Shown: piece after piece, positions 15,370 to 31,596 of the stretch
How the letters are laid out: each line of letters begins with the position of its first letter
How positions within the stretch are numbered: the first letter of the stretch is position 1
Assembly: GCA_041653395.1 (NCBI GenBank)
Contig: JBAZFK010000002.1
Span: forward strand, 33,215-97,214
DNA: 64,000 nt
Direction: 5' to 3'
Origin: Candidatus Nanoarchaeia archaeon
GTDB lineage: Archaea; Nanobdellota; Nanobdellia; Tiddalikarchaeales; Tiddalikarchaeaceae
Position numbers and translations under genes: made by a program
The notes under the pieces: model-generated
Told to the model about the DNA's origin: nothing
Seen by the model: only the letters and a program-made list of their open reading frames with translations
Databases searched by the model: none

Positions 15370-16103
15370 AACCTAAATTAAGCCAAATATTCCTGAAAGA
15401 TGAATCAGTCCTGAAAAAAATTGCAGAGACTATAAATGCAACAAAAAAAGACACTGTGTTTGAAATAGGCCCAGGAAAGGGAGCTTTGACAAAATACCTT
15501 GTAAACAATGCAAGAAAAGTTATTGCCTGCGAGATAGACAAATCATTAATCCCATATATTAATGGTTTAGGAGCAGAGATAATAAATAAAGACTTCTTAG
15601 ATTTAGCAATACCTAATAAAGTGACTCTTATAGTTGGAAATATTCCATATCATCTTAGCGGCAAGATTACTGAGAAAATTTTAAGGGAGAAAAAAAGATG
15701 CGTTATACTTTACCAAAAAGAGTTCGCCCAAAGAATAATAGGAAAACCAGGCACCAAGGATTACTCAAGATTAACAGTTCTTGCGAATCACTTGTCAACC
15801 CCAAAGATTAAGCTAATAGTTTCAAAGCAAAGCTTTAATCCTAAGCCTAAAGTTGACAGCGCATTAGTAGAATTTTTGCCAACAGGCAATGATTATAATG
15901 AAGGCTTTTTCAGATTCATAAAAACTTTGTTCGAGTTCAAAAATAAGAGCGTCAAGAATGCGCTTATCTATGGAAGAAGGGAATGGACTAATGAATTAGA
16001 CAAGAGAAAATTGAAAGACAAAGTCAGCAAGTGCACTGACAAGAAAGTAGTGACTTTAAGCATACCTGAACTATTAAAAGAATATGAGAACTTCAGAAAT
16101 TAA
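15366..16103 (+). CDS. ksgA: 16S rRNA (adenine1518/1519-N6) dimethyltransferase KsgA/Dim1
   Basis: QIFLKD, EIGPGKGALT motif I, GNIPYHLS motif IV. Confidence 0.9.
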   Translation: MKPKLSQIFLKDESVLKKIAETINATKKDTVFEIGPGKGALTKYLVNNARKVIACEIDKSLIPYINGLGAEIINKDFLDLAIPNKVTLIVGNIPYHLSGKITEKILREKKRCVILYQKEFAQRIIGKPGTKDYSRLTVLANHLSTPKIKLIVSKQSFNPKPKVDSALVEFLPTGNDYNEGFFRFIKTLFEFKNKSVKNALIYGRREWTNELDKRKLKDKVSKCTDKKVVTLSIPELLKEYENFRN

Positions 16104-16454
16104 TCCTGGTATCCAGTCCTTGCATTGTCATGGTTGAACGTATTCCAAATATTGTTAGAAGCGCTCATCATTCCCTGCCTGATATTGGCAATTTCTTCAT
16201 TGTCAATGTTAATTATCTCAATTAATCCGTCATAGTCAATATCATCAATTATGAACATCTGCCCAGGGCAATACCCTGTGTAGTCAAAATATAACTCTTC
16301 TCCCGAATAGTTTAACACCTGGAAAGTGTCAAGATTAATAATATTACACTGATGACTGGAGTGATAGACTTCATTAAGAGTGAATAATAATTAGATTATT
16401 TATAAAATTACTCAAAAAAAAGGTTTTTATACTCTTAAATAATAATTTATAGCT

Positions 16455-17309
16455 ATGAATATTTTTAATAATAAAACAAATGTTGAGAAAATAGAGAAGA
16501 ATTTTGAAACCAAAAAAATGGAAAATCATGAAGTATTTCATGAATTAAACATAAGAGGCCAGGATCCTGAATTGCTTAGAACACAGGTTTTAGAGCTGCT
16601 TGAAGCAATGGATTATGATATTACTATTAATAAATTCGCAAAGTTCGAGGATTCGGAATTTGAGAATATTTTCCAGGCAGGAAGGTTAAAGCCTTTAAGA
16701 GCAGTGCTTCATGCGCAAAAAAGAGTGCAAACAGGCTCAAAATATCCATGGTTATGGAAGCTGATAGGTATAATAGGGCTAGTTTCATTGACAATATTTT
16801 TCCTACCAAATGAATCAATAAGTGCCTTGAATGTAACTTTAAACAAAACTTATTTTCTTATCTTAAGTATAATATTACTTTTAATCAGCATTTTAATCTG
16901 GATAACCAGAAAGTTTGACACAATAAATATTTGGTTCAAATCCAGCGGAATCTACAATGTTGAGGATAAAACAAGCGATTTTAAAATAATACTAAGCGGA
17001 GAATCAACAAGCAAGATTTTAAAATCAAAGCTAGACAATGAAATAACCCAAGTTTTCAGCCTGATAAGCTCAAAATATGTTAAGTCAAGGGACAATGAAG
17101 AAAGGTCATTGCTTGATTTGCCAAGAAGCTCCAAAAACTTGGATGTTAAAATAATAAAAGAGATAAATCAGATAGAAAATGATTCAAAAAATTTGGACTC
17201 AAGGCTTGCAAACAAGGACATTACTGAAAAAACTTATGTTGAACTGAAGGAAAAATTCAGCCAAAGAAAGCTTAAGCTTGAAACAATACTTGATTTAATA
17301 AACGCTTAA
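16455..17309 (+). CDS. hypothetical membrane/coiled-coil protein
   Basis: two central TM helices and a C-terminal coiled coil. Confidence 0.4.
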   Translation: MNIFNNKTNVEKIEKNFETKKMENHEVFHELNIRGQDPELLRTQVLELLEAMDYDITINKFAKFEDSEFENIFQAGRLKPLRAVLHAQKRVQTGSKYPWLWKLIGIIGLVSLTIFFLPNESISALNVTLNKTYFLILSIILLLISILIWITRKFDTINIWFKSSGIYNVEDKTSDFKIILSGESTSKILKSKLDNEITQVFSLISSKYVKSRDNEERSLLDLPRSSKNLDVKIIKEINQIENDSKNLDSRLANKDITEKTYVELKEKFSQRKLKLETILDLINA

Positions 17310-17312
17310 GCC

Positions 17313-17750
17313 ATGAACAAAAAAACCCAAGTTCAAGCAATCAGGGAAGTTTTTCAATTCGGAATAGGGGTAATATTTTTGGTTTCAATTTTTTATTTCT
17401 TGTACAACTTCTTAATACCACAAATTCAAGATTATGCCCTTGGATTGCAGCTTAATAATGTTGCAGAGCATGCGAATTATCTCATTTCAGAATTTTATCA
17501 ATCAAGCAGCCAATCATTAAGCTCATTTGCTGAAGGCAAATACTTAATGCCTGAAAAACTAGGGGACTATTCTTATTCAGTATTTTTCAGCGGCAATGAA
17601 ATCTGCTCTTTAATACAAGACTTAAACATTGAAAGATGCGTTTTTATGCTTATTGATTCCTCCTATCAAGGTTTTTTTTATAGTGGAGGAGAAATGAAAA
17701 TCAGCATTAACTACACTGAAAGCAGTTCAAATATTATGATTGGAAACTAA
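17313..17750 (+). CDS. hypothetical membrane protein
   Basis: N-terminal TM helix. Confidence 0.4.
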   Translation: MNKKTQVQAIREVFQFGIGVIFLVSIFYFLYNFLIPQIQDYALGLQLNNVAEHANYLISEFYQSSSQSLSSFAEGKYLMPEKLGDYSYSVFFSGNEICSLIQDLNIERCVFMLIDSSYQGFFYSGGEMKISINYTESSSNIMIGN

Positions 17751-18025
17751 AAAATAATACGAAGCAGCAGCGCTATCAATAACAAAATTATTGCCAATTT
17801 TATGAATTTGAAAGCGAATTTTCCGATAAAATAACCAAGGCTTAAGCCTATTATCACTGCAATCAAGCCTGAATTATCAGAGCTTAAAAACTTGTCAGCA
17901 TAATTAGAATACCATGGCTTAATTATAGAATCATTCACTAATGTTTCATTGTATGAATAATTTAATTCATCGCAAAAAGCAATGCTGCTTAAAAAAATGA
18001 ATGAAAAAAGAATCAAACGCTTCAT
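17747..18025 (-). CDS. small secreted/membrane hypothetical protein
   Basis: signal peptide plus a C-terminal TM helix. Confidence 0.35.
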   Translation of the reverse strand: MKRLILFSFIFLSSIAFCDELNYSYNETLVNDSIIKPWYSNYADKFLSSDNSGLIAVIIGLSLGYFIGKFAFKFIKLAIILLLIALLLRIIF

Positions 18026-18588
18026 ATTACAAATAACCTATATTTATCCTCCTCATTAAGCTCTATTTTTATTCGTTTTATTATAAGCTCTTTAGGGTTA
18101 GGAATTGAAGGAACTCTTGAAGAGATATCCTCAAAGCTTTTAAATAAAGCTTCCTGCCTGGCATCTAAGATTGCCCACATGTGCTTGTTTCCAATCCCTG
18201 GCAATAACTCTAACTGGTGCAATCTCTTGCTAATAGGCCCTGATTTGTTAAAAAAATTAATCCATTTCTCGCTGCTTTCTTCAATGATTTTATTAATAGC
18301 CAAATCCAGATTCATTCTTGCAGTGCTTGTGAGCTTTGAATAAGGAATCTTTCCTGAAACATGATGAATCTCATCCCTTTTGTCATTCCCAATATAAACA
18401 TTGCTTAATGGAGCTAAACTGACATCTTTTTTAGGTATTACTTCAAGCAAAAACAAATGGCTCTTTCCAATCACTTGCCCAACAGGCATTCTTCTGTTTT
18501 CCATAGGATAACCATTTGATAAATAATCAAGAACTATTGCATAGTCCTCTTTTAATACAGGTTTTTGGAAATTGTTTGGTGGAATCAT
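18022..18588 (-). CDS. DUF655 family protein (OB fold plus HhH)
   Basis: C-terminal LPGIGNKHMWAILDAR HhH. Conserved archaeal position downstream of L21e-RpoF. Confidence 0.55.
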   Translation of the reverse strand: MIPPNNFQKPVLKEDYAIVLDYLSNGYPMENRRMPVGQVIGKSHLFLLEVIPKKDVSLAPLSNVYIGNDKRDEIHHVSGKIPYSKLTSTARMNLDLAINKIIEESSEKWINFFNKSGPISKRLHQLELLPGIGNKHMWAILDARQEALFKSFEDISSRVPSIPNPKELIIKRIKIELNEEDKYRLFVI

Positions 18589-18625
18589 AGTTAATCAGCT
18601 CTCCTTATTAAAGGAATTATTTGTA

Positions 18626-18961
18626 TTATAAATTAGGTTTTACTACTTCAAATACTTTTTCAATTTCCTCATCACTGAAAGGAATTAAACTCATCTGCAA
18701 AACAACCCTTAATTCATCAATGCTTGCAGGAAGAATATCAATAATTTTAACAATTAAGTCATCTTGCAGTTTAATATTATTCAAATTTTTCAAATCCTCT
18801 TTTAATTTCAAAGCCTTATCTGCCTTAAGCTTTTTATAATTGCCAGTATGCTCTTTTGTAAGCTTTTGCTCCATTTCCAAATCCTTCCTTTCGCTAAGGA
18901 TTTTTTTAATCTCAGCTTTAGTCACATACTCTTCGTTTATTAATTTATAATTCATAATCAA
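18626..18961 (-). CDS. rpoF: DNA-directed RNA polymerase subunit F (Rpo4)
   Basis: Size, the LP.SIDELRVV...SDEEIEKV C-terminal pattern, and the conserved position after L21e. Confidence 0.55.
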   Translation of the reverse strand: MIMNYKLINEEYVTKAEIKKILSERKDLEMEQKLTKEHTGNYKKLKADKALKLKEDLKNLNNIKLQDDLIVKIIDILPASIDELRVVLQMSLIPFSDEEIEKVFEVVKPNL

Positions 18962-19252
18962 TCACAACTTTTTCAGATGAACTGGCAAAACCATCACATC
19001 TTTTTCCTTATTCATATCTTTTACCCTAACCCTATAAGCGTTTCCTCTTTTTTCAACAATTATTCCAGTCTTATTCAAGAACCTTTTATGGATAAGATTC
19101 TTTTTAACCATTGGCTCAATCTTAACCAAAACATTGTCCCCAATTTCATAGTTTTTTAACTGCTTAACAATGCTAACTTTTCCCTTATTTCTAGGAGTTC
19201 TGGTTAATATTTTTCTGCATCCAGACTGCTTTCCATGGCTTCTTTTTGGCAT
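18962..19252 (-). CDS. rpl21e: 50S ribosomal protein L21e
   Basis: MPKRSHGKQSGCRKILTRTPRNKG...N-terminus typical of L21e. Confidence 0.85.
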   Translation of the reverse strand: MPKRSHGKQSGCRKILTRTPRNKGKVSIVKQLKNYEIGDNVLVKIEPMVKKNLIHKRFLNKTGIIVEKRGNAYRVRVKDMNKEKDVMVLPVHLKKL

Positions 19253-19253
19253 C

Positions 19254-19409
19254 TCATTTCACCTTTTTTTTCAATTCATCAATAGTATGTATCTTTTGAC
19301 AATTACAGCATATTTTAAATACTTTTTTGCCAACCCTTAAGTAAGTGCCGTTAATCTTGCCAATCAAACCCTCTTTGATTTCTTTTTTGCAAAGATCGCA
19401 CTTGCTCAT
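19254..19409 (-). CDS. small zinc-ribbon protein (CxxC...CxxC), hypothetical
   Basis: 51-aa ORF not in the track, MSKCDLCKKEI...KICCNCQK. Ends 2 nt before the L21e start. Confidence 0.3.
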   Translation of the reverse strand: MSKCDLCKKEIKEGLIGKINGTYLRVGKKVFKICCNCQKIHTIDELKKKVK

Positions 19410-19724
19410 TTAAAATTAAAAATAAAACCCAGCCCTTTAAAAAGATTTACATAACTTGACTTTGGACAATCGGCATAAACATTGCGCCAAATTAAAAACG
19501 TAGCTGCTGTTTAGTAATATTTTTAAACAGATTTTTTTCTATTATTAATTATGAAAGAAACTCAAGATAATCAAGACTTAAGCAAATTAGAGGCAATAAT
19601 TCTTGATGAAAAACTTGAGATACAAGCAAAGGATTAAGCAAAAATTTCATTTAAACCCCAGCCAAATAAATTACTACTATAAAATAGTAATATTTATAAA
19701 AAGATTTTTTTCTAATAATTTTTT

Positions 19725-20828
19725 ATGAGTGGACTACTTGAATCAATAATTAAATCAAAAAGTGTCAAATTAACATATGAATTTGTTTCTTCTGAAGGAT
19801 TTCCCATGAAAGTAAATAATGAATGGGTTCTTGAATACTTGCCTGATTCTGAAGTGTTTTGCTTTCATGATGGAGGAAGATACTATTTTGATGCCAAAAA
19901 TGGAAATTATTTAGGGCAAACAACACCAAAATTAAACAAAAAAACAAATACTTATTTTAAAACTCCGCAAAAGCTTAATGGAGATGCAGCAAATAAATTC
20001 ATACAAATCTATGATACATTGCTGAAATCAATAGTTGATGTTGGGATAAAAGCAAAAAAAGCAGGATATTTTAAAAATGATATCAGCAATGAATGCGGAG
20101 AATTTTTGGGAAAAATGAGAGAAGAAAGAAGCAATATCTTTTACTATCTTTTAGAGAATGCATACAATGATTACAGCAAAGGGATTGAATGGAATAAATC
20201 TTCACTTTCCGGAAATGAAGAGATAAATTTGTATAAAGGATTCAAAGATGACGAGCAAGTATTCGGAATCAAGCTATCAGGGAAACATTTTGATAACAGA
20301 AAAAAATCAGTAATTCCATTATTTGCTTCAAACCAAACAAGGTATAATTTAGAGGATATAAAAACTATTACAGAGGATGTTTTAGGTCCTGAATGCGATG
20401 ATGTAAAAAATGCATCATTACTTTCAATAGTGAACTTAGAAAAAATACTTTCAAGCTTTAAGCCAAGCATTAAAGAAGAAGATAAAAAACAGCTATTAAT
20501 AAATAAATTATCAAAAATGTATAAGCAAAACAAAGCCTATTCTAAAGAGCTTTTAAGCGAAACTCCAACACTCACACAAAACGAAATGGCTGAATACAAA
20601 ACAAGCTATGAGTTTTATAAGCAAAGAGCTTCATTAAGTTTATTAAAAAGTGTTTTAGTAATAGATAATTGCCGTGAAATAGTTGACGAAAAAGTTGAAA
20701 AAAAATCCACCTCTGCATCTTCAAAAAAAGGTGGAATTAAAGGCCCTGCATTAAATGGCGCGCAGAAAAACTTTAAAGAATGCCTAAATGAATTGAAAGG
20801 AGTATTAGGGAAAATAAAAGTTGACTAA
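19725..20828 (+). CDS. hypothetical protein
   Basis: 367 aa, no recognisable motif. Confidence 0.45.
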   Translation: MSGLLESIIKSKSVKLTYEFVSSEGFPMKVNNEWVLEYLPDSEVFCFHDGGRYYFDAKNGNYLGQTTPKLNKKTNTYFKTPQKLNGDAANKFIQIYDTLLKSIVDVGIKAKKAGYFKNDISNECGEFLGKMREERSNIFYYLLENAYNDYSKGIEWNKSSLSGNEEINLYKGFKDDEQVFGIKLSGKHFDNRKKSVIPLFASNQTRYNLEDIKTITEDVLGPECDDVKNASLLSIVNLEKILSSFKPSIKEEDKKQLLINKLSKMYKQNKAYSKELLSETPTLTQNEMAEYKTSYEFYKQRASLSLLKSVLVIDNCREIVDEKVEKKSTSASSKKGGIKGPALNGAQKNFKECLNELKGVLGKIKVD

Positions 20829-20836
20829 TCAAAGTT

Positions 20837-22171
20837 TTACATTAATCCCTTGAATTTTGACAAGTCAAAATTCTTTTCAAGCATCTTAAGCTTTCTGGGA
20901 TTAATTTTACTGCTTAACTTGCCAATCTGCCTGAAACTGTCAAGCAACGCCTTGACATCAGCTTCGCTAACACCTGCTCCGAAAGCAATTCTTTGAATCC
21001 TGGTTCCTGAAATCATCTTAGGATTAGTCAACTCCTTATAAGTCATGCTTGAAAGTATTGGCTCAAACTTTTTCAGCTTACTTTCCTGCATGCCTAATAA
21101 TTCATTTGACACTTTTCCGGAAACTCCTGGAATAAGATTAACAACGCTTGAAAGGCTTCCCATCTTCTTAATGCCTTTTAATTGGTCATAAAAATCAATC
21201 AAGTTAAACTCTCCGCTAAAAAACTTCTCAGAAGCTTTCTTTGCATCCTCTTCGCTGAAAGCCTCCTGCGCTTTTTTTAATAATGCATTCAAATCTCCTA
21301 AACCCAATAATCTGCTGATAAAACCTTTATTGTCAAACTCCTCAAAATCATCAACTTTTTCACCAGTTCCAATAAAAACAATAGGAGAATCAGACTCAAA
21401 GCAAGCTGTAAGAACGCCGCCACCTTTTGCAGTGCCATCCATCCTAGTGATAATAACGTTTTTGACATTAACTAATTCCTTAAAGGTTTTAGCCTGAAGC
21501 TTTGCACTTTGCCCAATATCAGCAGGAAGAACTAAAATGCTTTCAGTAGGCCTAAACTCCCTTTTAATCTCCTTAATTTCCTTAGCTAATTCCTTGTCCA
21601 AAGCGTCCCTTCCTGCGCTGTCAGCAATAATGATATCAAACTTATTCAATTCTTTGTCAAATTTTTTAATAACATCACTAGGATTCTTCAAAGACTCATC
21701 AACAAAAACTGGAACCTGAATCCTGTCACCTAACTGCCTTAACTGCTCCCTTGCAGCAGCCCTGAAAGTGTCAAGGCCAAGCAAAGCAACCTTGAAACCC
21801 CTTTTTTTGTAATACTTTGCCAATTTAGCGCTAGTAGTAGTTTTTCCAGAACCAAATAGTCCAACTAATAAAATCTTGTAAGGCTTCTCATTAATATTCA
21901 AAGACTTGCCTTTTCCAACAATCTTGGTTAGCTCATCATAAATAACATAAATGAACTGCTCTTTTACAGTGAACTTTAATCCTTTCTCTTCCTTAACCCT
22001 TTTTTTAACATGCTCAATGAACGAGAAAGCTAAGATTGGCTCAACATCGCTAGCAATCAAAGTCTTAGACAAATCCCTTAAAATGCTGTCTAATAACTCG
22101 TCATCAAAATGGCTAGTGCCTTCAATTCTCTTAATAATGCTTTTCAAAGCATTCTCAAAACCGCCAAGCAT
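20837..22171 (-). CDS. srp54: signal recognition particle protein SRP54
   Basis: GLFGSGKTTT, DSAGRD, C-terminal Met-rich M domain. Confidence 0.95.
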   Translation of the reverse strand: MLGGFENALKSIIKRIEGTSHFDDELLDSILRDLSKTLIASDVEPILAFSFIEHVKKRVKEEKGLKFTVKEQFIYVIYDELTKIVGKGKSLNINEKPYKILLVGLFGSGKTTTSAKLAKYYKKRGFKVALLGLDTFRAAAREQLRQLGDRIQVPVFVDESLKNPSDVIKKFDKELNKFDIIIADSAGRDALDKELAKEIKEIKREFRPTESILVLPADIGQSAKLQAKTFKELVNVKNVIITRMDGTAKGGGVLTACFESDSPIVFIGTGEKVDDFEEFDNKGFISRLLGLGDLNALLKKAQEAFSEEDAKKASEKFFSGEFNLIDFYDQLKGIKKMGSLSSVVNLIPGVSGKVSNELLGMQESKLKKFEPILSSMTYKELTNPKMISGTRIQRIAFGAGVSEADVKALLDSFRQIGKLSSKINPRKLKMLEKNFDLSKFKGLM

Positions 22172-22276
22172 GACTTAGATTAACAAATCATTTTTTTTAA
22201 AACTTGCTTAACAAAGAAATAACCCCTGAGCAGAGACAAAAAGGTTTTTAAAGAGAATATATTCTTATAAGGAACT

Positions 22277-22888
22277 ATGGCTAATGAATATTTTAAATTA
22301 AATGATTCAACTAAAGAAAAATCAAAAAATCTAGCTTACGGAGTAGTTGGCTCAGCACTGTCAACAATTCTGCTATTCGGAGTTAACCCAATATTAGGAT
22401 TAATAAGCTATGCTTTAACAGGGGGAGTGACTTTAGGGAAATACGTAAAAGACAAATCCTCAACCAAAGATATAGTGAATGAATATTTTTCAAGCGTTGA
22501 AGCAGATGATGATCTTGAATTAATAATTGACAAAAAAGGAAGACTGCAAACAGACCTTCCTAATTATCTATCAAAACCCATACAAAATTACATAAACACT
22601 AACGGGCTCACATCAGACTATAACTTAATAATAAGAAAAAATAATAACGGAAAATATAATATAGGTCACAAGCACTCAACCTGCTTAGGGAATTATATTT
22701 TATCCCCCGACTTTGACATAAAAACTGTGAAAAATTACTCTAACACTCGCCAGAACACTCAAGCAAACAGCGGGCAAAATAATCAAAGCGCAACAAACAC
22801 AAAAAGAAGGGAAGCGCTAAGAAGAATGAGACACAAACTTATACCTGCTCATAGAGATCCAGCAGGTGATGCAGCAAGAGATTTTTAA
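22277..22888 (+). CDS. hypothetical membrane protein
   Basis: two N-terminal TM helices, Asn/Gln-rich middle, basic C-terminus. Confidence 0.4.
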   Translation: MANEYFKLNDSTKEKSKNLAYGVVGSALSTILLFGVNPILGLISYALTGGVTLGKYVKDKSSTKDIVNEYFSSVEADDDLELIIDKKGRLQTDLPNYLSKPIQNYINTNGLTSDYNLIIRKNNNGKYNIGHKHSTCLGNYILSPDFDIKTVKNYSNTRQNTQANSGQNNQSATNTKRREALRRMRHKLIPAHRDPAGDAARDF

Positions 22889-22903
22889 AGAGGTGAAAAA
22901 AAA

Positions 22904-23365
22904 ATGGTTTTAAACTATAAAGGAAGTGATTTAGAAACAGCACTTATAGAAGGTGAATATACCTATGGTGTGGGTAATACTGTTCCTGATAAAGTTTATG
23001 GAGCTATTCCAGATCCAGCACCAGGAATTAACGGAGGAGGCGTATTTACTCCATTAACTTACGGGCTAGCAGATGCTAATGCAAACACAGTTCTTAAAGT
23101 TACATTAGAAGGCGCAACTTACATAAACGCAGCAACTTTAATGTATCAAATGTCCTATATTGCCAAGTATATAACCTTTAATGAAAAGTTACCAACTGAC
23201 GGTGAAATAACTTCAGCAACAAATAAATATACTTTAGATATTCAAAAGAAATCAAAAGAATTATTTGATGAGTTTTCAAAACAAAGTACTGAAAACAAAT
23301 CAGAACAAATTGAAAAGGATATTGAAAAAATAAAACAAGTTATTACAGAAAGTCCACACTTTTAA
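22904..23365 (+). CDS. hypothetical protein, family A short form
   Basis: Its N-terminal ~115 aa are paralogous to 23403..24638: shared GGVFTP, YGL..ANA, NAATLM.QMS. Confidence 0.45.
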   Translation: MVLNYKGSDLETALIEGEYTYGVGNTVPDKVYGAIPDPAPGINGGGVFTPLTYGLADANANTVLKVTLEGATYINAATLMYQMSYIAKYITFNEKLPTDGEITSATNKYTLDIQKKSKELFDEFSKQSTENKSEQIEKDIEKIKQVITESPHF

Positions 23366-23402
23366 TTTTTTTTAATTTTTAATTTTTTTTTAGGTAAAGA
23401 TA

Positions 23403-24638
23403 ATGGTATATATTCATAAAAATACGGATTTGGAACAGGCTTTAATACAAGGTTTTAATACTTTGGGTCCTGGCAATGCTATTCCAAATAAGGTTTATGG
23501 AATTATTCCTAATCCATCTCCAAGAATTAGGAGTGGAGGAGTATTTACTCCAGGGTTATACGGATTAGTAAGTGCTAATGCAGGCACTATTCTTCAAGTT
23601 GTATTGGAGAATCAGACTTATTTAAATGCAGCAACTTTAATGAATCAAATGTCTTTTATTAATAAATATCTTATATTTAGAGAAGAATTGCCAAATGATA
23701 ATGATATAGCCTCTAATCAAAATAATAATACAGTTTTTATACATAAACAAGCATGTGATTTATTTGATATCTATGGACCTCAGATTGTTGCACCTGTGCC
23801 TGTTCCAATTCCTGCACCCATCCCTGCTCCAGTTTTAATTAACAGATGTAATAGAACTGCATTAAATACTTATATTTTTGATCCTTTAAATCAAGCAGTA
23901 GTTGGAAATCCTATTCAAGGAAATTTAAGGGTTCATTTAAATGCTATTGGAACTCCAGTAGATTTTGGAATAATTCGCGGATCTAAAAAAATTAATTATT
24001 TAGAAAATAATTTAATAATCTATGATCAATTAAGAGGTGCAGCTGCTGTTCCAGTTAATACTGCTCTTGAAAATTCAGGAAGATTTGATGCTTATTTCTT
24101 TAATGGAATTATAAGTATTGATGGAAGAGTTCTTCCAGCAGGAAATGATTTTAGGCAAAATTTCTGCCCACAAAACAACCCATTTAACATGACTAATTTA
24201 GGGCAAATTCAAAATTTATTTAATACTGTTTATACTCCACTTAGAATTGCAGGAGTAAAAGTTCAAGATATAGCTCAAACAATCAGGGCTGTAACTAATC
24301 CAGTAATTACAACACATGCAAGAAAAATTTCAGCTAACTTATTTAGTGTACCAACTATTAACCCTAATGAATATAACCAATATTATTGCATTTTTTCAGA
24401 AGACAGAGCACTACCAAATAATGCTGCAATTTTGAATAACTTACAAGTTGTTAATGCAGGAAGAAAAGTAAGGCATGACATTTTAAGAAATCTTAATACT
24501 CCTAATTTAATATTTAACCATAAAGAAGACCCTTATTCAAGTACTGCAATTACAACATATTATCATCATATTTTAAATACTTTTGAAACAATGTACCAAT
24601 ATGAAAGAATTAATGGATTTAATAGCATTGTTTGGTAA
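23403..24638 (+). CDS. hypothetical protein, family A long form with Pro-rich linker and an Asn/Thr-rich C-terminal domain
   Basis: N-terminal domain paralogous to 22904..23365. APVPVPIPAPIPAPV linker. C-terminal ~260 aa beta-rich. Confidence 0.45.
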   Translation: MVYIHKNTDLEQALIQGFNTLGPGNAIPNKVYGIIPNPSPRIRSGGVFTPGLYGLVSANAGTILQVVLENQTYLNAATLMNQMSFINKYLIFREELPNDNDIASNQNNNTVFIHKQACDLFDIYGPQIVAPVPVPIPAPIPAPVLINRCNRTALNTYIFDPLNQAVVGNPIQGNLRVHLNAIGTPVDFGIIRGSKKINYLENNLIIYDQLRGAAAVPVNTALENSGRFDAYFFNGIISIDGRVLPAGNDFRQNFCPQNNPFNMTNLGQIQNLFNTVYTPLRIAGVKVQDIAQTIRAVTNPVITTHARKISANLFSVPTINPNEYNQYYCIFSEDRALPNNAAILNNLQVVNAGRKVRHDILRNLNTPNLIFNHKEDPYSSTAITTYYHHILNTFETMYQYERINGFNSIVW

Positions 24639-24643
24639 AATTT

Positions 24644-25546
24644 TTATTTGGTGATTATTTTCTCAATTATTTCAGCTTTATTAAATTCTTTCAAATCCTT
24701 ATATTCTTGGCCTGTGCCTAAGAATAGTATTGGTTTTTTGACGCTGTAGCTTGCTGAAATTATAGCCCCACCCTTGGTGTCAACATCAGCTTTTGATAAT
24801 ATTAAGTAATCAATGCCTATTTCAGCGTTGAACTTGTCAACTTGAAGTGTAACATCAGCTCCAGTGATTGAGTCAGCAACGAAGATGCATGAATCAGGCA
24901 TTATAACGCGCTTCATTTTTTTTAATTCATCCATTAAATTAGAGTTGGACTGAAGCCTTCCTGCAGTGTCAATGATTACTACATCAATATTGTTCTTTTC
25001 TGCATGCTTTTTTGCATCATATGCAATGCTGGTTGAGTCAGAGCCGTACTCAGAGCTTATTAGCTCAACACCTAATTTGTCAGCATGAGCCCTTAATTGC
25101 TCAATGCTTGCAGCCCTGAAAGTGTCGCAAGCTGCAAGCAAAACGCTTAATTTTTTTGCCTTGAAATAATTAACAAGCTTCCCTATAGTGGTTGTTTTGC
25201 CGCTGCCGTTGACTCCAATAATCATTATTATATATGGCTTTTTTGCCTTGATTTTTTTCAAAAACTCGCCAGGAACTTCCTCAATCAATACATTATCAAG
25301 CGTGCTTTTCAATGAGTCATTGATGACTTTTTTCAAATCTTTTTTAACGCTTTTTCCAACTAGCTCCAGCTTCAAATTCTTCTTGATTTTACTAACCACT
25401 TCCGAGCTGACATTGCTTTGTAGAAGATTAAGCTCTATATCAAAGAAGATTTTTTCAAAATCTTTCTCATTCATCACTTTTTGTGTAAAAACTTTCTCAA
25501 CTTTGTTGATTGCTTCGCTTATCTTTTTTTTAAAAAACTCAAACAC
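24644..25546 (-). CDS. ftsY: signal recognition particle receptor FtsY
   Basis: GVNGSGKTTTIGKL, DTAGRLQ, NG-domain layout. Confidence 0.9.
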   Translation of the reverse strand: MFEFFKKKISEAINKVEKVFTQKVMNEKDFEKIFFDIELNLLQSNVSSEVVSKIKKNLKLELVGKSVKKDLKKVINDSLKSTLDNVLIEEVPGEFLKKIKAKKPYIIMIIGVNGSGKTTTIGKLVNYFKAKKLSVLLAACDTFRAASIEQLRAHADKLGVELISSEYGSDSTSIAYDAKKHAEKNNIDVVIIDTAGRLQSNSNLMDELKKMKRVIMPDSCIFVADSITGADVTLQVDKFNAEIGIDYLILSKADVDTKGGAIISASYSVKKPILFLGTGQEYKDLKEFNKAEIIEKIITK

Positions 25547-25553
25547 TTCAGAT

Positions 25554-26033
25554 TCACTTCTTGCTTCTTTTTTCTTTCTTTTGAAGCTCTTCTAGTTCAT
25601 CTTTTTTTTCATTTTCTTCTTCATTAGTCAATCCGATTAGTTCATGCTCAAGCTTCTTCAATTTGTCAGTAATCTTACCTGCTTCCTCATTGAATCTGGC
25701 TAATAATGAATCAGCTTCATCAATCCTTTCCTTGATGTATTTGTCGCACTCCTCTGAATTCTTTTCAATGATTATTTTATTGCCTATGCCTATCAAGGCC
25801 TTGTCAGGATCTTTAATGTAAACTTTAAGCATTAATCCTTCGCTTAAAGGCATGACCATTTCCTGATTAGGCTTGGCTTTTTTAACCTGGCTTATTATTT
25901 CAAGAGCTGATTTGAATTCAGCCATTCTGGAATTAACCTCCTGATTCTGGGCATCAATACTTTCAAGCTCCTGCCTAAGCATCTCGAATTCGGATGATTT
26001 TTCTTCAATTATTTCTCTTCTGTTATTTTTCAT
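25554..26033 (-). CDS. pfdA: prefoldin alpha subunit
   Basis: coiled-coil / beta hairpin / coiled-coil layout and the conserved position next to ftsY. Confidence 0.55.
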   Translation of the reverse strand: MKNNRREIIEEKSSEFEMLRQELESIDAQNQEVNSRMAEFKSALEIISQVKKAKPNQEMVMPLSEGLMLKVYIKDPDKALIGIGNKIIIEKNSEECDKYIKERIDEADSLLARFNEEAGKITDKLKKLEHELIGLTNEEENEKKDELEELQKKEKRSKK

Positions 26034-26680
26034 TTCATTAATTCCTCCAAAGCCATTATTTCACTTCCATTCATCTCTTTTGAAATAATTATTCCATGCT
26101 TATTTTTTACAAAACCAGCCTTAATAATCGGGCTGCTGCCATTAACAGTGCCTAATTCTAACTCGATTTTAAAAAACTCCTTGATTTTTTCAATCTCATT
26201 GTCCCTTGCCTGCTTATTAATAAGCCCTTTTTTGCTAAAAACAATCAAGTTTGCTCCAACAGTTTCTATGCTTGCAATCTTTGATTTCATAACCTCTAAT
26301 CCTAAATCTTCCAATTGTTTTAGTGCTGAATCCTCAAAGTTAGGGTTAACAAGAGCTTTATTTTTATAAACAACAATATTATTGCCTAAAGCATTGGATT
26401 TAGTGTCAATTATTGCAATTTTTAGCTTCATCTTTTCAAGCTCCTTAAGGGAGTCTTTGCTTATCCCTTTAGGCACTAATAATAATTCCTCATTTCCTGC
26501 CAAGAATATGCCGTTAACGCTGGAGTTCATAACATCCGCTTTAATAATTTCTGTCTTAAGCTCATTCTTTATTGTTTTAATGACCTCATCGCTGGTTATT
26601 CTTGGAACAACAGTGAACTTATCTGTTGAATAAAAAAACAGTCCAATATTGGGGTTTCCTAAAAAATTAATTATTTGCAT
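26030..26680 (-). CDS. eif6: translation initiation factor 6 (aIF6)
   Basis: MQIINFLGNPNIGLF and the pentameric-repeat pattern. Confidence 0.85.
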   Translation of the reverse strand: MQIINFLGNPNIGLFFYSTDKFTVVPRITSDEVIKTIKNELKTEIIKADVMNSSVNGIFLAGNEELLLVPKGISKDSLKELEKMKLKIAIIDTKSNALGNNIVVYKNKALVNPNFEDSALKQLEDLGLEVMKSKIASIETVGANLIVFSKKGLINKQARDNEIEKIKEFFKIELELGTVNGSSPIIKAGFVKNKHGIIISKEMNGSEIMALEELMK

Positions 26681-26682
26681 AA

Positions 26683-27162
26683 TTATAACTTGTTTAAATT
26701 TTTATCAAATTTAGCCACTGGTTTTTTTATAGCTTCATCTTTGACTTTTTTTGTTGAATTTATTTCTTCTTTTTTATCAGCTTTAATATTATCCTCTTTT
26801 TTTGATTCAGCAGTTAACTCCTCAAGAGATTTTTCTTTTTCCTTATCTTTCTTATCAGCCTTTTTTTCAACTTCAATCCTTAAAGGCTTTCCTTCAAGGT
26901 TAACAAAGGCTTTTCCGCTTTTTAATTTTTGAACAAAAACGCTTACTTTAGTTGGAGGATTCTTGATGCCTCTATTCCATACTGCATTGTTTAACTCTTC
27001 GCCAATTAAAACATCGCCTTTTTTAGCCCTTGTATTCTTTTCAATGAATTGCTTAATAGTGACAATAGCCCTTTTGCTTCTTTCATCACTAGGGGCTTTA
27101 AGCCCGTTCTTTTTTAGCCTTATTACATATTTTCTTGTTTCAAAATCCTTCATTATACTCAC
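26683..27162 (-). CDS. rpl31e: 50S ribosomal protein L31e
   Basis: YVIRLKK...APSDERSKRAI...LNNAVWNRGIKNPP. Confidence 0.8.
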   Translation of the reverse strand: MSIMKDFETRKYVIRLKKNGLKAPSDERSKRAIVTIKQFIEKNTRAKKGDVLIGEELNNAVWNRGIKNPPTKVSVFVQKLKSGKAFVNLEGKPLRIEVEKKADKKDKEKEKSLEELTAESKKEDNIKADKKEEINSTKKVKDEAIKKPVAKFDKNLNKL

Positions 27163-27347
27163 CTATTGATTCCTATCTTAGTTTTTCTCCAGTTCCTTCT
27201 CATCTTAGGGTTAAGAGTCCAGCTGCTGACATGAACCCCTCTTTTTAAGCCGTATTTTTTAACAATAATCCATCTAGGAGCAACTCTGTTCTTTTTCATT
27301 GCGCTTTCTAGCTTAGCTTTTAATGAGCCGAATTTATTTTTTGTCAT
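27159..27347 (-). CDS. rpl39e: 50S ribosomal protein L39e
   Basis: KKNRVAPRWIIVK...RRNWRKTKI. Confidence 0.8.
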   Translation of the reverse strand: MTKNKFGSLKAKLESAMKKNRVAPRWIIVKKYGLKRGVHVSSWTLNPKMRRNWRKTKIGINR

Positions 27348-27771
27348 TTTTTATCACTTTATAAGCAGTATTATCCATTAATTTCATTGCTTTAGGGGTT
27401 AATTCTCTTCCTTTTCTTTTTCCTCTCATAACTTTTTTAAGCAACCCCTCATCCTCTAATTGCTGCATAATAACCCTAATAATTTTTCCAGAGCCTTTAA
27501 AGGCTTTTTCTTGCCTTGTTCCCCTGTTTTTTCTTGAACCATACTTAGTTCTTAGCCTTGAAACTCCTTTTGGTCCGTGAACATAAATATACCTTAAAAT
27601 GCTGGCAGTTCTTATATGCCAAAAATCCTCTTGAGTTGGAGATTTTTCCTTGCTAACTGAAGTCTTAACAAACATTGCCCACTGGGGAGCAGCAATCTTT
27701 GGAAACTCCTTTAATTCAACCTTTAAAGCATCAATAAATTTGTTCGCATCCGCATCAAATACATTAACCAT
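27334..27771 (-). CDS. rps19e: 30S ribosomal protein S19e
   Basis: PQWA..VKT...DFWHIRTASILRYIY...GV..LRTKYG. Confidence 0.8.
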   Translation of the reverse strand: MVNVFDADANKFIDALKVELKEFPKIAAPQWAMFVKTSVSKEKSPTQEDFWHIRTASILRYIYVHGPKGVSRLRTKYGSRKNRGTRQEKAFKGSGKIIRVIMQQLEDEGLLKKVMRGKRKGRELTPKAMKLMDNTAYKVIKNDKK

Positions 27772-27895
27772 ATTAACACAAAAAACTATTATTATTTTAA
27801 AAACTTTCCTATTAACAAGCTAAAATAATGTTTTTAACAGGCATAAGACTTCATTTTTAAAAACTTTTTTAAATCAAAACTTGCTTGTAATTGTT

Positions 27896-28057
27896 ATGTC
27901 TGAAAAAAGGTTGCCTTCCAGTTCTGGAGGAATAATGCAATATTATGATGATTATAAGACTAATTTTTCAGTAACTCCTATGCATGTAATAATAGCTACA
28001 GGAGTGCTTGTTGTTTTAGTCATACTGTTTAATTTCATAAACCCTTTCGGTTTTTAA
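27896..28057 (+). CDS. preprotein translocase Sec61-beta (archaeal SecG) subunit
   Basis: 53-aa ORF not in the track. SSSGGIMQYYDD motif followed by a single C-terminal TM helix. Confidence 0.6.
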   Translation: MSEKRLPSSSGGIMQYYDDYKTNFSVTPMHVIIATGVLVVLVILFNFINPFGF

Positions 28058-28102
28058 GAGACTCTTAAAAGTTTTTAAAATATTAAGTAATTATTTTAGT
28101 TA

Positions 28103-29419
28103 ATGGAATCATTTTTCAGCCCGAAAACAATTGCGCTAATAGGGGCAAGCAACAAGAAAGGAAAGATTGGAAATGATATATTCAATAATCTTAAAGTTTC
28201 TAAATCAAAAATTATTCCTGTTAATATCAATAAAGAAAAGATTATGGGCCAAAAATCTTACGAGAAAGTGAGTGATTATTCTGGAAAAATTGACTTGGCA
28301 ATAATTGTCATACCTGCAAAATTTGTTTTGGAGGTTTTAAAAGAATGCGGTGAAAAAAAAATAAAGTCAGCAATTATAATAAGCGCTGGTTTTGGAGAAG
28401 TGGGCAATAAAGAGCTTGAAGCTCAGGTTTTTGACCTTTGCAAAAACTATAATATTAAGCTTTTAGGCCCCAATTGCTTAGGCATACTTAATATAAACAA
28501 TAACTTAAATGCCAGTTTTTACAAAGGAAGAATACTTAAGGGAGGTATTTCATTCGTTTCGCAGTCGGGAGCAATAGGTGTTTCAGTTTTGGATAAGTCA
28601 GCAAGTGAAAATATTGGTTTCAGCAAATTCATCAGTGTTGGAAACATGCTTAACACTGATTTTTCTGACTGCATAAAATATTTGAGCAAGGATAAGGATA
28701 CAAAAGTTATTTGTTTATATATTGAAGGGATTAAGGATGGTGAAAGCTTCATTAAAGCAGTAAAAAGCTGCAAAAAGCCAATAATTACCCTGAAAGCAGG
28801 ATTTACAATTACTGCAATGAAAGCGATTTCCAGCCATACTGGAAGCTTGGCGGGAAATAGCAGGATTTATGACAGCATATTCAGGCAATTCGGAATAATT
28901 AAGGTTAATAACCTTAGTGAAATGTTTAATCTTGCAAAATATTTAAGCAATAATCCTATGCCAAAATCAAGAAATGTTTGCATAATAACTAATGCTGGAG
29001 GAATGGGAGTTCTTTGCAGCGATGCCTGCGAAAGCAACGGCTTAACAGTTGCAAAATTGCCTGATGCGGTTGAAAAAGAAATAAGCACATTTCTTCCAAA
29101 TCACTGGAACAAAAGCAACCCTATTGATATTTTAGGCGATGCTTTAGCTGACAGGTATGCTTTGGCATTAAAAACTTTGTCAGGCAAAAAATTTTATGAC
29201 ATATTATTGGTTATTCTTACTCCTCAAAGCAACACTGAAGTTGAAAAAAGCATGAAAGCATTGATTAATTTCAAAGCAAAGAATCATAGCATAGCCATTT
29301 TTTCATGCTTTGTTGGCGGAGAAAAAATTGATAAAGCATTAAAATTGGCTAATAGGCACAATATTATCAATTTTGATGAGCCTTATTTTTTTGCAAAATC
29401 CGTATCAAAATTATTCTAA
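28103..29419 (+). CDS. acetyl-CoA synthetase (ADP-forming) alpha subunit, CoA-binding plus CoA-ligase domains
   Basis: KTIALIGASNKKGKIG CoA-binding start, GPNCLGI, QSGA, phospho-His context SHTGSLAG. Confidence 0.75.
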   Translation: MESFFSPKTIALIGASNKKGKIGNDIFNNLKVSKSKIIPVNINKEKIMGQKSYEKVSDYSGKIDLAIIVIPAKFVLEVLKECGEKKIKSAIIISAGFGEVGNKELEAQVFDLCKNYNIKLLGPNCLGILNINNNLNASFYKGRILKGGISFVSQSGAIGVSVLDKSASENIGFSKFISVGNMLNTDFSDCIKYLSKDKDTKVICLYIEGIKDGESFIKAVKSCKKPIITLKAGFTITAMKAISSHTGSLAGNSRIYDSIFRQFGIIKVNNLSEMFNLAKYLSNNPMPKSRNVCIITNAGGMGVLCSDACESNGLTVAKLPDAVEKEISTFLPNHWNKSNPIDILGDALADRYALALKTLSGKKFYDILLVILTPQSNTEVEKSMKALINFKAKNHSIAIFSCFVGGEKIDKALKLANRHNIINFDEPYFFAKSVSKLF

Positions 29420-30022
29420 ATTTATCCTTGCATCAACCAAGAAATAAGCATTGCCTGAAAAAATCACAGGGTTTAAGTCCATCTCCAAAATTTTTTCTGC
29501 AATTGCTAAATCTCCTATTTTTATCAGTAATTCAGCTAATTTTTCCTTATCAATGCCAGAATTTCCCCTAAAGCCTTCCAGTATTTTTTTGAACTTTAAT
29601 TCATCAATCATGCCATAAGCATCTTTCTTGTTTAATGGAGCCTTTCTGAAGCTCACATCCTTAATTAATTCAACAAAGACTCCGCCTATGCCAAGCATCA
29701 CCATCCTGCCAAAAACTTCATCATTGCTGATTCCTAAAATTAATTCTGTTCCTTTTTTTTGCTCCTGCAGCACAATAGTTTTTGACAGTTTCTTAAGGGA
29801 ATTATAAGCTTTTAGCAGGTCTTTTTTGTCAAGTATGTTCAAAAACAAGCCTCCAACATCACTTTTATGCGAGTATTTTTCGCTGCTAATCTTGATAACC
29901 ACAGGCTTAGTTAGCCTGTCAAATGCTGAAAGCAATTCGTTCTTGTTTGAGCATTCGTAAAATTCAGCCAGGTCAAAATTCCTTGTTTTCATGAACCTCA
30001 ATGAATCGCTTAAGTTTAGCAT
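29411..30022 (-). CDS. acetyl-CoA synthetase (ADP-forming) beta subunit, ATP-grasp domain
   Basis: ATP-grasp fold motifs, convergent with the alpha subunit gene. Confidence 0.65.
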   Translation of the reverse strand: MLNLSDSLRFMKTRNFDLAEFYECSNKNELLSAFDRLTKPVVIKISSEKYSHKSDVGGLFLNILDKKDLLKAYNSLKKLSKTIVLQEQKKGTELILGISNDEVFGRMVMLGIGGVFVELIKDVSFRKAPLNKKDAYGMIDELKFKKILEGFRGNSGIDKEKLAELLIKIGDLAIAEKILEMDLNPVIFSGNAYFLVDARINLE

Positions 30023-30095
30023 AATAGATAAATTAATTATTTAATCATTTTAAAACATTACTTTTAAAAATAAATACTAATCTAATTATTCTTAT

Positions 30096-30170
30096 GGTCC
30101 GTTAGCTCAGCTTGGATAGAGCGCCTGCCTTCTAAGCAGGAGGTCGTGGGTTCAAATCCCATACGGACCA
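30096..30170 (+). tRNA. tRNA-Arg (anticodon TCT)
   Basis: Cloverleaf: acceptor ggtccgt/acggacc, anticodon stem cctgc/gcagg, loop cTTCTaa, T-loop ttcaaat. Confidence 0.85.
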
Positions 30171-30646
30171 ATAGTTGACAATCTGGGGAATAAATACCAA
30201 GAAATTTCTTCAACTGTTTTATGAGTTCTTGATTCAATGTTTTTTATTAAAGATTCAATATCTTCCCATTTCCATCCGGTTCTAAAATTAATTTTATCTA
30301 GATTCAAATTAGGTGATGTGCTGATTAGATAATTATTTGCATAGTTGTGGGGGTCTTGTATAAAAAAGCTTTGATGGGCTTCAATCACTTCATGGGCAAG
30401 CATAGGCTTTCTGAATTCCGTAAAATAAATATTGCCTTCTTTCAGCAAATCAACGCATTTTTTTGAATAAATTATGGATAAGCATGTGATTTTTTCATTA
30501 AAATCATAAGTTGCAACATAATTCATGTTTACCTTATCTGAAATGTTCATAGGACCTAGTTCTATTGTTTTAAAATAAGAATTCGCATATTTTTTGTTAA
30601 ACTCATTCAATAATTCTAGCTCAGAGTCTATTAAACAGGATTCCAT
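30152..30646 (-). CDS. hypothetical protein (its 3' end overlaps the tRNA by about 19 nt)
   Basis: 164-aa ORF. The overlap with the tRNA lowers confidence in the exact stop. Confidence 0.35.
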   Translation of the reverse strand: MESCLIDSELELLNEFNKKYANSYFKTIELGPMNISDKVNMNYVATYDFNEKITCLSIIYSKKCVDLLKEGNIYFTEFRKPMLAHEVIEAHQSFFIQDPHNYANNYLISTSPNLNLDKINFRTGWKWEDIESLIKNIESRTHKTVEEISWYLFPRLSTIGPYGI

Positions 30647-30691
30647 GAGTTATTCTTTAAATCTTTATTTTTTTAAAGCTTTACTTTATCA

Positions 30692-30934
30692 TTATTCTGG
30701 AATATATACTATTGTTTTATCATTGTCTTGTTTAATAGCATAGTTTATTGAAAATTCATCATTTTCAGTATAAAACTTTACTTTTAGCAAGGAGTCTGTA
30801 TGAATTCCATCTGTGCTTCCAATATTTTGTATTTTATATGAAACTTCACAACCTTTTTCTTTAGCTGCATGTTTCATGAATCCGATTGTCTCTTCTAAAG
30901 ACAATTCTTTTATTTTAATTTCATTGGTGTTCAT
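30692..30934 (-). CDS. small hypothetical protein
   Basis: 80-aa ORF. Confidence 0.3.
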   Translation of the reverse strand: MNTNEIKIKELSLEETIGFMKHAAKEKGCEVSYKIQNIGSTDGIHTDSLLKVKFYTENDEFSINYAIKQDNDKTIVYIPE

Positions 30935-31004
30935 GAGTAATAACTGAAGAAATTCTCTTTAAAAATGTTACTATCTATTAGTGACAAATACTTGCAACTG
31001 TTAA

Positions 31005-31517
31005 TCAATCATAAACATTCATGTTCAGCCTTTCCATTAATTTCTCTTTTATTGAATTAAGCTCTTCCATATAAAGTGCAGCATAAGTCAAAAGCTTTGA
31101 CTGATAATTAGTCCTTAAATAGATTGGCAGAATCATTTTAGTAAAAGAATTTCTTCTCCAAGTTTTAGTGTAGTCAAGTTCAATATTATATTTTATTACA
31201 AATATACCCATTACAGTGTCTCCAGCAATTCTGTAAGCATTTGTTGACAAAATAAAGGAGATTCTTGCAAAATCATCAATGTTTTTATAGGCAACCCAAT
31301 CCCATAACATAGTCTTGGCTGTCTGGTCTATATCTGTCTGAGTGAATGAGGTTTCAGTGCATTTTAATCCCCATTTTTCAATCAAATCATTGTAAAAATT
31401 TATATAAAAATCACTTATTTTCATTATGCTTCCTTTATTTTTAATTGTAAGCCAGTTAATATTGATTATTATTGGCTCATCTGGTTTTGCATCCTCAACC
31501 ATTTGCTTAAAATTCAT
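31005..31517 (-). CDS. hypothetical protein
   Basis: 170-aa ORF. Confidence 0.4.
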   Translation of the reverse strand: MNFKQMVEDAKPDEPIIININWLTIKNKGSIMKISDFYINFYNDLIEKWGLKCTETSFTQTDIDQTAKTMLWDWVAYKNIDDFARISFILSTNAYRIAGDTVMGIFVIKYNIELDYTKTWRRNSFTKMILPIYLRTNYQSKLLTYAALYMEELNSIKEKLMERLNMNVYD

Positions 31518-31596
31518 AGATTAAATATTGTCATCCTTTAATTAAAAAAGTTATGAATAAATAATTCTTATAAAACCTAGAATATTAAAAATTTGT

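Follow-up and report, generated by a model that had tools for sequence, protein, structure and literature searches.

The window analyzed here is a 64,000-nt stretch of contig JBAZFK010000002.1 (assembly GCA_041653395.1), a low-GC (30.6%) archaeal segment in which three co-oriented plus-strand open reading frames (ORFs) of 203, 153, and 411 amino acids (aa) lie between the genes for SRP54 and FtsY. The initial annotation had described this arrangement, and its coordinates hold. The three ORFs are referred to below as the anchor, short, and long genes and together as the module, much of which falls within what is very probably a miniature replacement island. The 153-aa product is listed by NCBI as a hypothetical protein of a "Candidatus Nanoarchaeia archaeon" metagenome-assembled genome (MAG), which makes the host a DPANN archaeon. 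Beyond FtsY lies the conserved archaeal cluster prefoldin-eIF6-L31e-S19e. The features of the locus are as follows.

20837-22171, minus strand: SRP54 gene, the conserved left flank, outside the module; the left recombination arm would start here
22239-22255, plus strand: BRE/TATA-like element AAAAGGTTTTTAAAGAG, read from the sequence, ~25-35 nt upstream of the anchor ATG
22277-22888, plus strand: anchor gene, 203 aa (ORF list, hydropathy)
22331-22438, plus strand: predicted transmembrane (TM) hairpin of the anchor, residues ~19-54 (hydropathy; invariant columns in the three-way alignment)
22834-24572, plus strand: probable replacement island, without DNA alignment to the sister contig (blastn, boundary alignments)
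22835-22885, plus strand: swapped anchor tail, residues 187-203, KLIPAHRDPAGDAARDF (boundary alignment, three-way alignment)
22890-22896, plus strand: Shine-Dalgarno sequence GAGGTGA, 7 nt before the short-gene ATG
22904-23365, plus strand: short gene, 153 aa, N-domain plus helical tail
23366-23402, plus strand: oligo-T intergenic spacer, 37 nt, read from the sequence
23403-24638, plus strand: long gene, 411 aa, with N-domain, Pro-rich linker, and C-domain
23403-23783, plus strand: N-domain of the long protein, residues 1-127 (paralogy with the short protein)
23784-23837, plus strand: Pro-rich (VP/IP/AP)n linker, residues 128-145 (translation)
23838-24638, plus strand: C-domain of the long protein, basic, isoelectric point (pI) 9.1 (translation, sister comparison)
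24644-25546, minus strand: FtsY gene, the conserved right flank, facing the long gene in convergent orientation across 5 nt

The three ORFs are evidently real coding genes, as judged by conservation of the reading frame and by their ratios of nonsynonymous to synonymous substitution rates (dN/dS). The short ORF is kept in frame over 137 codons, at 48 to 50% aa identity, in the protein P0005 of a distant relative, encoded on a 1.2-kb contig (L007) from run SRR22315503. Against this relative, the short gene and N-domain have a dN/dS of ~0.44, with dS near saturation. For the anchor, dN/dS is 0.18 relative to a sister genome described below.

The short and long proteins form a paralogous pair, as originally proposed. 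BLASTP aligned the 153-aa protein to residues 1 to 127 of the 411-aa protein without gaps (70/127 identities, 55%; E = 2e-46), a match well outside what chance would give, and the GGVFTP, YGL..ANA..L.V.LE, and NAATLM.QMS blocks noted earlier are all present in the pair. At the DNA level, the short gene and the N-domain of the long gene are 70.6% identical over 303 nt (blastn). The Pro-rich linker, IVAPVPVPIPAPIPAPVL, was likewise found where it had been reported, at residues 128 to 145; the hydropathy peak that it produces is Pro-rich and hence not a TM helix. Although the C-domain had been described as Asn/Thr-rich, the 411-aa protein as a whole contains 13% Asn and only 6% Thr. The short protein is acidic (pI 4.7).

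Comparison with a sister MAG (Nanoarchaeia, GenBank JBAZGS010000004, isolate SO_2017_LW3_51) revealed a block replacement within the module. An 83.9-kb contig of this MAG (L001) encodes a homolog of the 203-aa anchor (P0004, 88% identical) and displays the same gene order, with SRP54 on the minus strand (carrying the Pfam domains SRP54_N, SRP54, and SRP_SPB), ORFs of 201, 134, and 359 aa on the plus strand, and FtsY on the minus strand. By blastn, the window aligns to this contig at 12006-16093 (90.4% identity), 16414-22833 (92.2%), and 24573-32331 (91.5%). The intervening island of ~1.7 kb, equivalent to 2.1 genes, comprises the last 17 anchor codons, the entire short gene, and all but the end of the long gene. 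On the left, its edge is sharp and interrupts the anchor gene just past the EALRRMRH codons; on the right, it falls within the final ~22 codons of the long gene, in the vicinity of the conserved motif FE[TS]M.QYER. Flank identity stays at ~0.92 until the final 100 to 200 nt, where it falls to 0.82 at the left edge and to 0.64 at the right; as the two genomes are already 8% diverged, a synonymous-substitution peak at the island boundaries is not resolvable. Across the unalignable block, the genes nevertheless keep their order and sizes, and protein charges and intergenic signals are preserved as well.

At the protein level, the short proteins of the window and the sister are 25.6% identical, compared to 24.1 ± 4.0% after shuffling, and 34 of 100 shuffles reached or exceeded the observed value. 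Similarity between the long proteins is confined to the C-terminal ~220 residues (195 to 411; 29% identity, pairwise E = 4e-14), where the motifs QDIAQ.IR, YYC..E.R.LP, and FE[TS]M.QYER are common to both alleles and the proportion of nonsynonymous differences (pN) about equals that of synonymous differences (pS). Within the sister allele, no similarity was detectable between the short protein and the N-region of the long protein, and an N-domain profile gave no significant match to either sister protein (hhalign; weak helix match to the short protein, E = 0.065). The flanking genes remain under strong constraint, with dS values of 0.42 to 0.49 between the two genomes and dN/dS ratios of 0.03 for SRP54 and 0.065 for FtsY.

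The distant relative adds a second comparison. On its contig, which gives no context upstream of the anchor, an anchor homolog is followed by P0005 and then by a gene starting with MVFNYKGQDLDTYLING, again the paralogous N-domain. Judging from these translations, the layout of an anchor, a short gene, and a long gene with a shared N-domain recurs in this lineage; the short-plus-long sharing highlighted in the initial annotation is therefore not unique to the window, whereas in the sister cassette (i.e., the short and long genes) it is undetectable. The short protein is 47.7% identical to P0005, in contrast to the 25.6% shared with the sister. In DNA, this relative aligns to the window solely across the end of the anchor tail and on into the short gene (71.6% identity, 292 nt); over the TM-hairpin region, it aligns to the sister genome instead. 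A short protein that is at chance level within a dS of ~0.45, yet ~48% identical across a far deeper split, makes divergence in place implausible and suggests that the block was exchanged or that an ancient allele was kept across lineages. The history of the cassette disagrees with that of the anchor, and the block evidently either travels from lineage to lineage or has been retained as an ancient allele.

The alternative in which the sister versions are fast-evolving, dispensable orphans that diverged in place under relaxed constraint, with no exchange and no special function, is improbable on these data. DPANN genomes are orphan-rich, and the C-domain figures (29% identity, pN about equal to pS) as well as the weak, co-linear helix match between the short proteins are what such a process would leave behind. 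It does not explain why the short protein drops to shuffle level where housekeeping dS is below 0.5 and the anchor body is 88.6% identical, while remaining far more similar to a lineage whose anchor body is only 41.6% identical. Neither does it account for the transition from ~92% identity to unalignable sequence within 100 to 200 nt or less, nor for the stability of the alleles across samples.

This stability is apparent from metagenomes. The source data sets for the locus are JGI 3300035208, 3300037067, and 3300014204 and runs SRR18595300 and SRR22315503. The JGI sample 3300035208 holds both cassette types, the sister type on contig L002 (99.9% identical to the sister contig) and the window type on contigs L010 and L006. 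L010 is a stand-alone contig of 1,918 nt that is 99.8% identical to the window and spans 22829-24746, almost exactly the divergent block. L006 (Ga0376279_0008861), which ends at window position 22826, is 100% sister-like up to approximately window position 21950 and 100% window-like thereafter. The switch, at ~7050-7100 of the contig (window ~21950-21990), lies in the 5' region of SRP54 and coincides exactly with the start of L002 from the same sample. L006 may be a natural recombinant or an assembly chimera of coexisting variants. In other data sets, contig L011 matches the window at 100% identity, and contigs L003 and L004 match the sister contig at 99.9 to 100%. Each allele is thus 99.8 to 100% identical across samples, which indicates that the alleles are discrete and stable rather than hypermutating.

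Diversity-generating retroelements are known in DPANN archaea, and the block might in principle be the target of such an element or of another form of in-place hypermutation. The 64-kb window contains no template/variable repeat pair of the kind these elements use and no att-type repeats for the island, the paralog pair being the only repeat found by blastn. Moreover, the alleles are unalignable instead of differing at adenine positions, and each is essentially invariant across samples. We consider this explanation effectively refuted. No silent cassette copies were present in the window or on the contigs of the sister and the distant relative.

The anchor is a basic protein (pI 9.4; 9.3 to 9.6 at all three loci). 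It had been annotated as a two-TM protein with an Asn/Gln-rich middle and an Arg-rich tail. Both the hairpin and the Arg-rich segment, KRREALRRMRHK, near the C terminus were recovered, but the N/Q/T-rich stretch is located at residues ~155 to 175, closer to the tail than to the middle. With its very short GVNP turn, the hairpin is the best-conserved part of the protein (LLFGVNPILG.ISYALTG.VT.GKY), and it is flanked by Lys-rich segments on both sides. By the positive-inside rule, an established principle of membrane protein topology, these Lys- and Arg-rich segments would place both termini in the cytoplasm, and the C-terminal part of ~150 aa with its Arg-rich tail is predicted to face the cytoplasm.

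The body of the anchor and its last 17 residues have different affinities. While the body is closest to the sister, the tail motif DP..GDAA.D[FL] is common to the window and the distant relative, and the sister has VTPRPRRLGLGGAPGV at this position. The anchors end in ...RDPAGDAARDF in the window, ...IDPRAVEDAAGDL in the distant relative, and ...RRLGLGGAPGV in the sister. In the three-way alignment, the anchor tail accordingly appears to track the cassette type rather than the anchor body.

The short proteins at all three loci are acidic (pI 4.7 to 4.9), measure 134 to 158 aa, and lack Cys, and their composition is alike although the cassette types share no sequence similarity. The long proteins combine an acidic-to-neutral N-region with a basic C-domain. 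Among the short and long proteins of the three loci, no Sec, Tat, or class III signal peptide, TM segment, or known archaeal C-terminal anchor was found. Their N termini (MVLNYKGSDLE and MVYIHKNTDLE) are hydrophilic, and the 19-residue hydropathy maximum stays under the TM range, the Pro-rich linker excepted. No PGF-CTERM or pilin model in Pfam or NCBIfam matched the paralogs, and each protein carries one to six N-glycosylation sequons.

These properties tell against the surface or adhesin function raised in the initial annotation, whereby the short and long proteins would be exported subunits or adhesins of an episymbiont, diversified to evade viruses or to match hosts. DPANN archaea do depend on cell-cell contact, the long protein combines a high Asn content with a rigid, Pro-rich linker, and exposed structures that viruses target are typical products of replacement islands (PMC4033161). 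Yet neither paralog has an export signal, few sequons are present, the charge distribution would put the anchor tail on the cytoplasmic side, and no pilin, S-layer, or adhesin family was matched. We therefore regard surface exposure as rather unlikely.

The proteins of the module evidently constitute a new family and are, across the libraries searched, complete orphans, in line with the novelty claimed at the outset: no family, structure, or viral match was obtained in any of them. Neither the three proteins nor the sister alleles gave a significant match in Pfam (scanned with the ORFs around the locus and those in the 40-to-50-kb part of the window), PHROGs, NCBIfam, or PADLOC. Single-sequence and profile searches of PDB sequences, as well as tblastn against phage (INPHARED) and plasmid records, returned no match for the module proteins. 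No IMG/VR viral contig aligned to the N-domain or the long protein, and alignment of the anchor against genome, metagenome, and viral contigs yielded the sister lineage only. In a word-indexed search of 5.8 billion proteins, the two paralogs matched only themselves and the anchor matched, in addition, the sister. With the 411-aa protein as query, an exhaustive phmmer/HMMER scan of 1.84 billion cluster representatives recovered only the query itself, its paralog, and P0005 (158 aa, 43% identical to the 411-aa protein over residues 1 to 125). The motifs of the module were not found in the literature, nor was the locus in a genome survey of Nanobdellota. Exact-match look-ups of the window SRP54 and FtsY, by which other cassettes were sought through identical flanks, found neither on record.

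Structure prediction was of limited use. AlphaFold2 models had a predicted local distance difference test (pLDDT) score of 28 for the 411-aa protein, which is unusable, and of 54.5 for the 153-aa protein (three-sequence alignment), in which only the helices at residues 73 to 149 reached 70 to 80. A Foldseek search with this weak 153-aa model found nothing at E ≤ 0.001 in the PDB or BFVD. A PADLOC match of residues 323 to 388 of the 411-aa protein to PD-DExK (E = 0.013) was dismissed, being at chance level for six proteins compared with 5,027 models; no nuclease motif is conserved between the alleles.

A viral origin had also been suggested initially, on the grounds that sharing of a domain between a short and a long protein occurs in viral structural proteins. 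The module would then be the remnant of an integrated virus or mobile element with structural genes, which would suit both its orphan proteins and a GC content at third codon positions (GC3) far below that of the neighbors. Nothing in the searches bears this out: IMG/VR, INPHARED phages, plasmids, PHROGs, and BFVD are all without a match. Neither the ORF list nor the repeat search revealed an integrase, a transposase, or att-like direct repeats. No tRNA adjoins the module, the nearest being at 30096, and the same three genes occupy the same position between core genes in the sister and recur in the distant relative. A viral remnant is thus very improbable.

As to composition, the GC3 of the cassette genes, 0.13 to 0.16, ranks third and fourth lowest among 74 ORFs, and that of the sister cassette is 0.07 to 0.09. 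SRP54 and FtsY have a GC3 of 0.37 and the anchor of 0.27. The element upstream of the anchor, comprising sequences resembling a transcription factor B recognition element (BRE) and a TATA box, is identical in the sister; the contig of the distant relative starts inside the anchor gene and is uninformative here. AAAAGGTTTTTAAAGAG is a putative archaeal promoter, from which a leaderless or near-leaderless anchor transcript would start. Shine-Dalgarno sequences precede the short gene by 7 to 10 nt in all three loci (AGGTGA in the distant relative, GGAGG in the sister). An A-run follows GAGGTGA ahead of the short gene, and the spacer between the paralogs, exactly 37 nt as annotated initially, is oligo-T-rich. 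Oligo-T runs also separate the short and long genes in both relatives, and the spacer could be an archaeal terminator and/or a TATA-like promoter of the long gene, in which case the anchor and short genes may be transcribed separately from the long gene. A near-repeat of the upstream element, AAGAGATTTTTAAAGAG, was observed at 22876-22892, across the anchor stop codon and inside the swapped block; it is too near the short-gene ATG to be its promoter.

The locus shares several properties with replacement flexible genomic islands (Lopez-Perez, Martin-Cuadrado & Rodriguez-Valera 2014, PMC4033161). The block occupies the same position between syntenic core genes in both genomes, with the order SRP54 (-), anchor (+), short (+), long (+), FtsY (-) and flanks aligned over more than 18 kb. 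It has an equivalent architecture made up of unalignable genes, and its versions coexist in one habitat. Its boundaries look abrupt, as exchange by homologous recombination might leave them. It differs from such islands in size, with ~1.7 kb compared to tens of kilobases, and in having breakpoints inside coding sequence. Whereas classic islands encode exposed glycans, pili, or flagella, the products here lack export signals and are predicted to be cytoplasmic. In addition, at ~92% identity the genomes compared represent sister species and not strains of one species.

A second parallel is the hypervariable VARTIG module of Thermococcales (Makarova et al. 2021, PMC8416519), in which a large upstream protein has several immunoglobulin (Ig) domains, the C-terminal one being hypervariable. 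Its variability was attributed to recombination between lineages, and a function in conflict or self/non-self recognition was proposed (PMC8416519). Both modules are archaeal and have a conserved upstream gene with a variable C-terminal end, followed by variable downstream genes. Unlike VARTIG, the present module contains no Ig or other Pfam domains and has no sequence relationship to it. Its upstream gene encodes a small TM-hairpin protein in which only ~17 residues vary, and it belongs to a DPANN lineage with two known alleles.

The cassette system among the options listed in the initial annotation fits the locus best, since the paralog pair and the anchor tail are replaced as a block in the sister; the classic polymorphic-toxin layout does not, with the C-domain conserved and the N-domain swapped. 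Toxin-immunity cassettes of the polymorphic toxin and contact-dependent inhibition (CDI) type, reportedly described by Zhang, Aravind et al. in 2012, still offer an instructive comparison. Here too, a protein terminus is inherited as a block with downstream gene(s), from a breakpoint directly after a conserved motif (EALRRMRH), and the alleles are discrete. The downstream genes covary with the anchor tail, and none was identified as an immunity protein. In contrast to those cassettes, the locus lacks a secretion or trafficking domain, repeats, and any recognizable toxin or immunity domain. The long protein is variable at its N terminus and conserved at its C terminus, a variable C terminus (17 aa) existing only on the anchor. 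As for the small protein, it is paralogous to the N-domain of the large one and does not represent a distinct immunity fold.

A toxin-antitoxin, abortive-infection, or polymorphic-toxin-like module is on balance unlikely. The long protein would be a basic effector, the acidic short protein its neutralizer or immunity protein (as a decoy of the N-domain), and the hairpin protein a partner or pore. This proposal overlaps the explanation preferred below but commits to a toxic effector. A gene for a small, acidic protein just upstream of one for a larger, basic protein, with the pair coinherited as a block, speaks for such a system. Breakpoints in coding sequence after a conserved motif are also seen at CDI/Rhs and VARTIG loci, and both the atypical codon composition and the coexistence of discrete alleles agree with it. 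The reversed pattern of conservation in the long protein and the missing secretion or trafficking domain speak against it, as does the lack of any toxin, immunity, or defense family in Pfam, NCBIfam, and PADLOC, where the PD-DExK match is not significant.

We favor the explanation that the locus is a lineage-restricted, three-gene module within a miniature replacement island, the products of which would cooperate on the cytoplasmic side of the membrane. Docking of the N-domain on the variable anchor tail would be the reason that the two are inherited together. The short protein might compete with the long protein on the anchor or coassemble alongside it, and the activity would reside in the basic, more conserved C-domain. 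Homologous recombination would swap the alleles, with the conserved anchor body as one arm and FtsY together with the 3' end of the long gene as the other, and allele diversity could be kept by frequency-dependent selection. A role in virus-host, symbiont-host, or self/non-self conflict is favored because divergent, recombining alleles at one locus resemble replacement islands and VARTIG. The replacement-island description taken by itself is very likely correct. The docking and conflict mechanism taken by itself is tentative, somewhat short of an even chance, and the statement that joins the two stands about evenly balanced. Rather unlikely is a more specific form: a polymorphic, intracellular, membrane-tethered recognition module in which a ~17-residue tail pairs with a cognate N-domain on a short decoy or adaptor and on a long effector. 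Whole sets would be exchanged by recombination within coding sequences, as a cytoplasmic analogue of polymorphic toxin or VARTIG self/non-self or antivirus systems.

Several points weigh against this explanation. The independent loci number three and the cassette types two, so that cosegregation of tail and N-domain is an observation without statistics. The shared N-domain is undetectable in the sister allele, and docking on the tail may therefore not generalize. The cytoplasmic orientation derives from the positive-inside rule alone, and a cytoplasmic module is a poor fit to replacement islands, which classically encode exposed structures. To these are added the absence of defense and toxin families from the three profile libraries just named and the chance that L006 is a chimera.

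The genomes of DPANN archaea, which are obligate symbionts, abound in unannotated genes, and next to nothing has been learned about how these archaea handle viruses, hosts, or competitors. If the pairing of tail and N-domain is true, the module would provide a compact, testable model of coadapted specificity alleles in an uncultured archaeal lineage and would be the second archaeal hypervariable module of the recognition type after VARTIG. If it is not real, the module would still represent a new protein family and could serve to mark recombination among strains of Nanoarchaeia. As a replacement island, it is unusual in its intragenic breakpoints, its apparently intracellular products, and its paralogous short/long pair. 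Its general importance is limited by a narrow distribution, with three loci among ~15 billion proteins.

Other variable stretches were observed in the region. On the other side of SRP54, the plus-strand ORF at 19725-20828 encodes a Lys-rich, 367-aa protein with no match in Pfam, PHROGs, NCBIfam, or PADLOC and 89% identity to a 379-aa protein of the sister. The upstream region and the first ~25 codons of this orphan (19414-19800) are hypervariable between the two genomes, with identities of 0.46 to 0.86 per 100 nt and indels. Further upstream, ~310 nt at 16094-16413 are absent from the sister (L001 4088-4099). This stretch holds a minus-strand ORF of 72 aa (16100-16318), just upstream of which, and out of frame, a short signal-peptide-like ORF (MKSITPVISVILLILTLSRC) was noted by eye; it may represent a small frameshifted or strain-specific gene.

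At ~40000-50000, the GC content is low (0.24 to 0.27), and most of the other very low-GC3 ORFs are found there, including several orphans with a GC3 of ~0.10. This may be another flexible region; the sister contig ends short of it. The assigned genes are the following.

40680-41990: Fic/DOC protein with a DeoR-type helix-turn-helix
43520-44800: M16 peptidase
45334-46074: S-adenosylmethionine (SAM) methyltransferase
47367-48317: DUF5700 putative peptidase

Finally, a tRNA match on the plus strand at 32175-32321 spans 147 nt, indicating a gene that probably has an intron, consistent with an archaeal genome.

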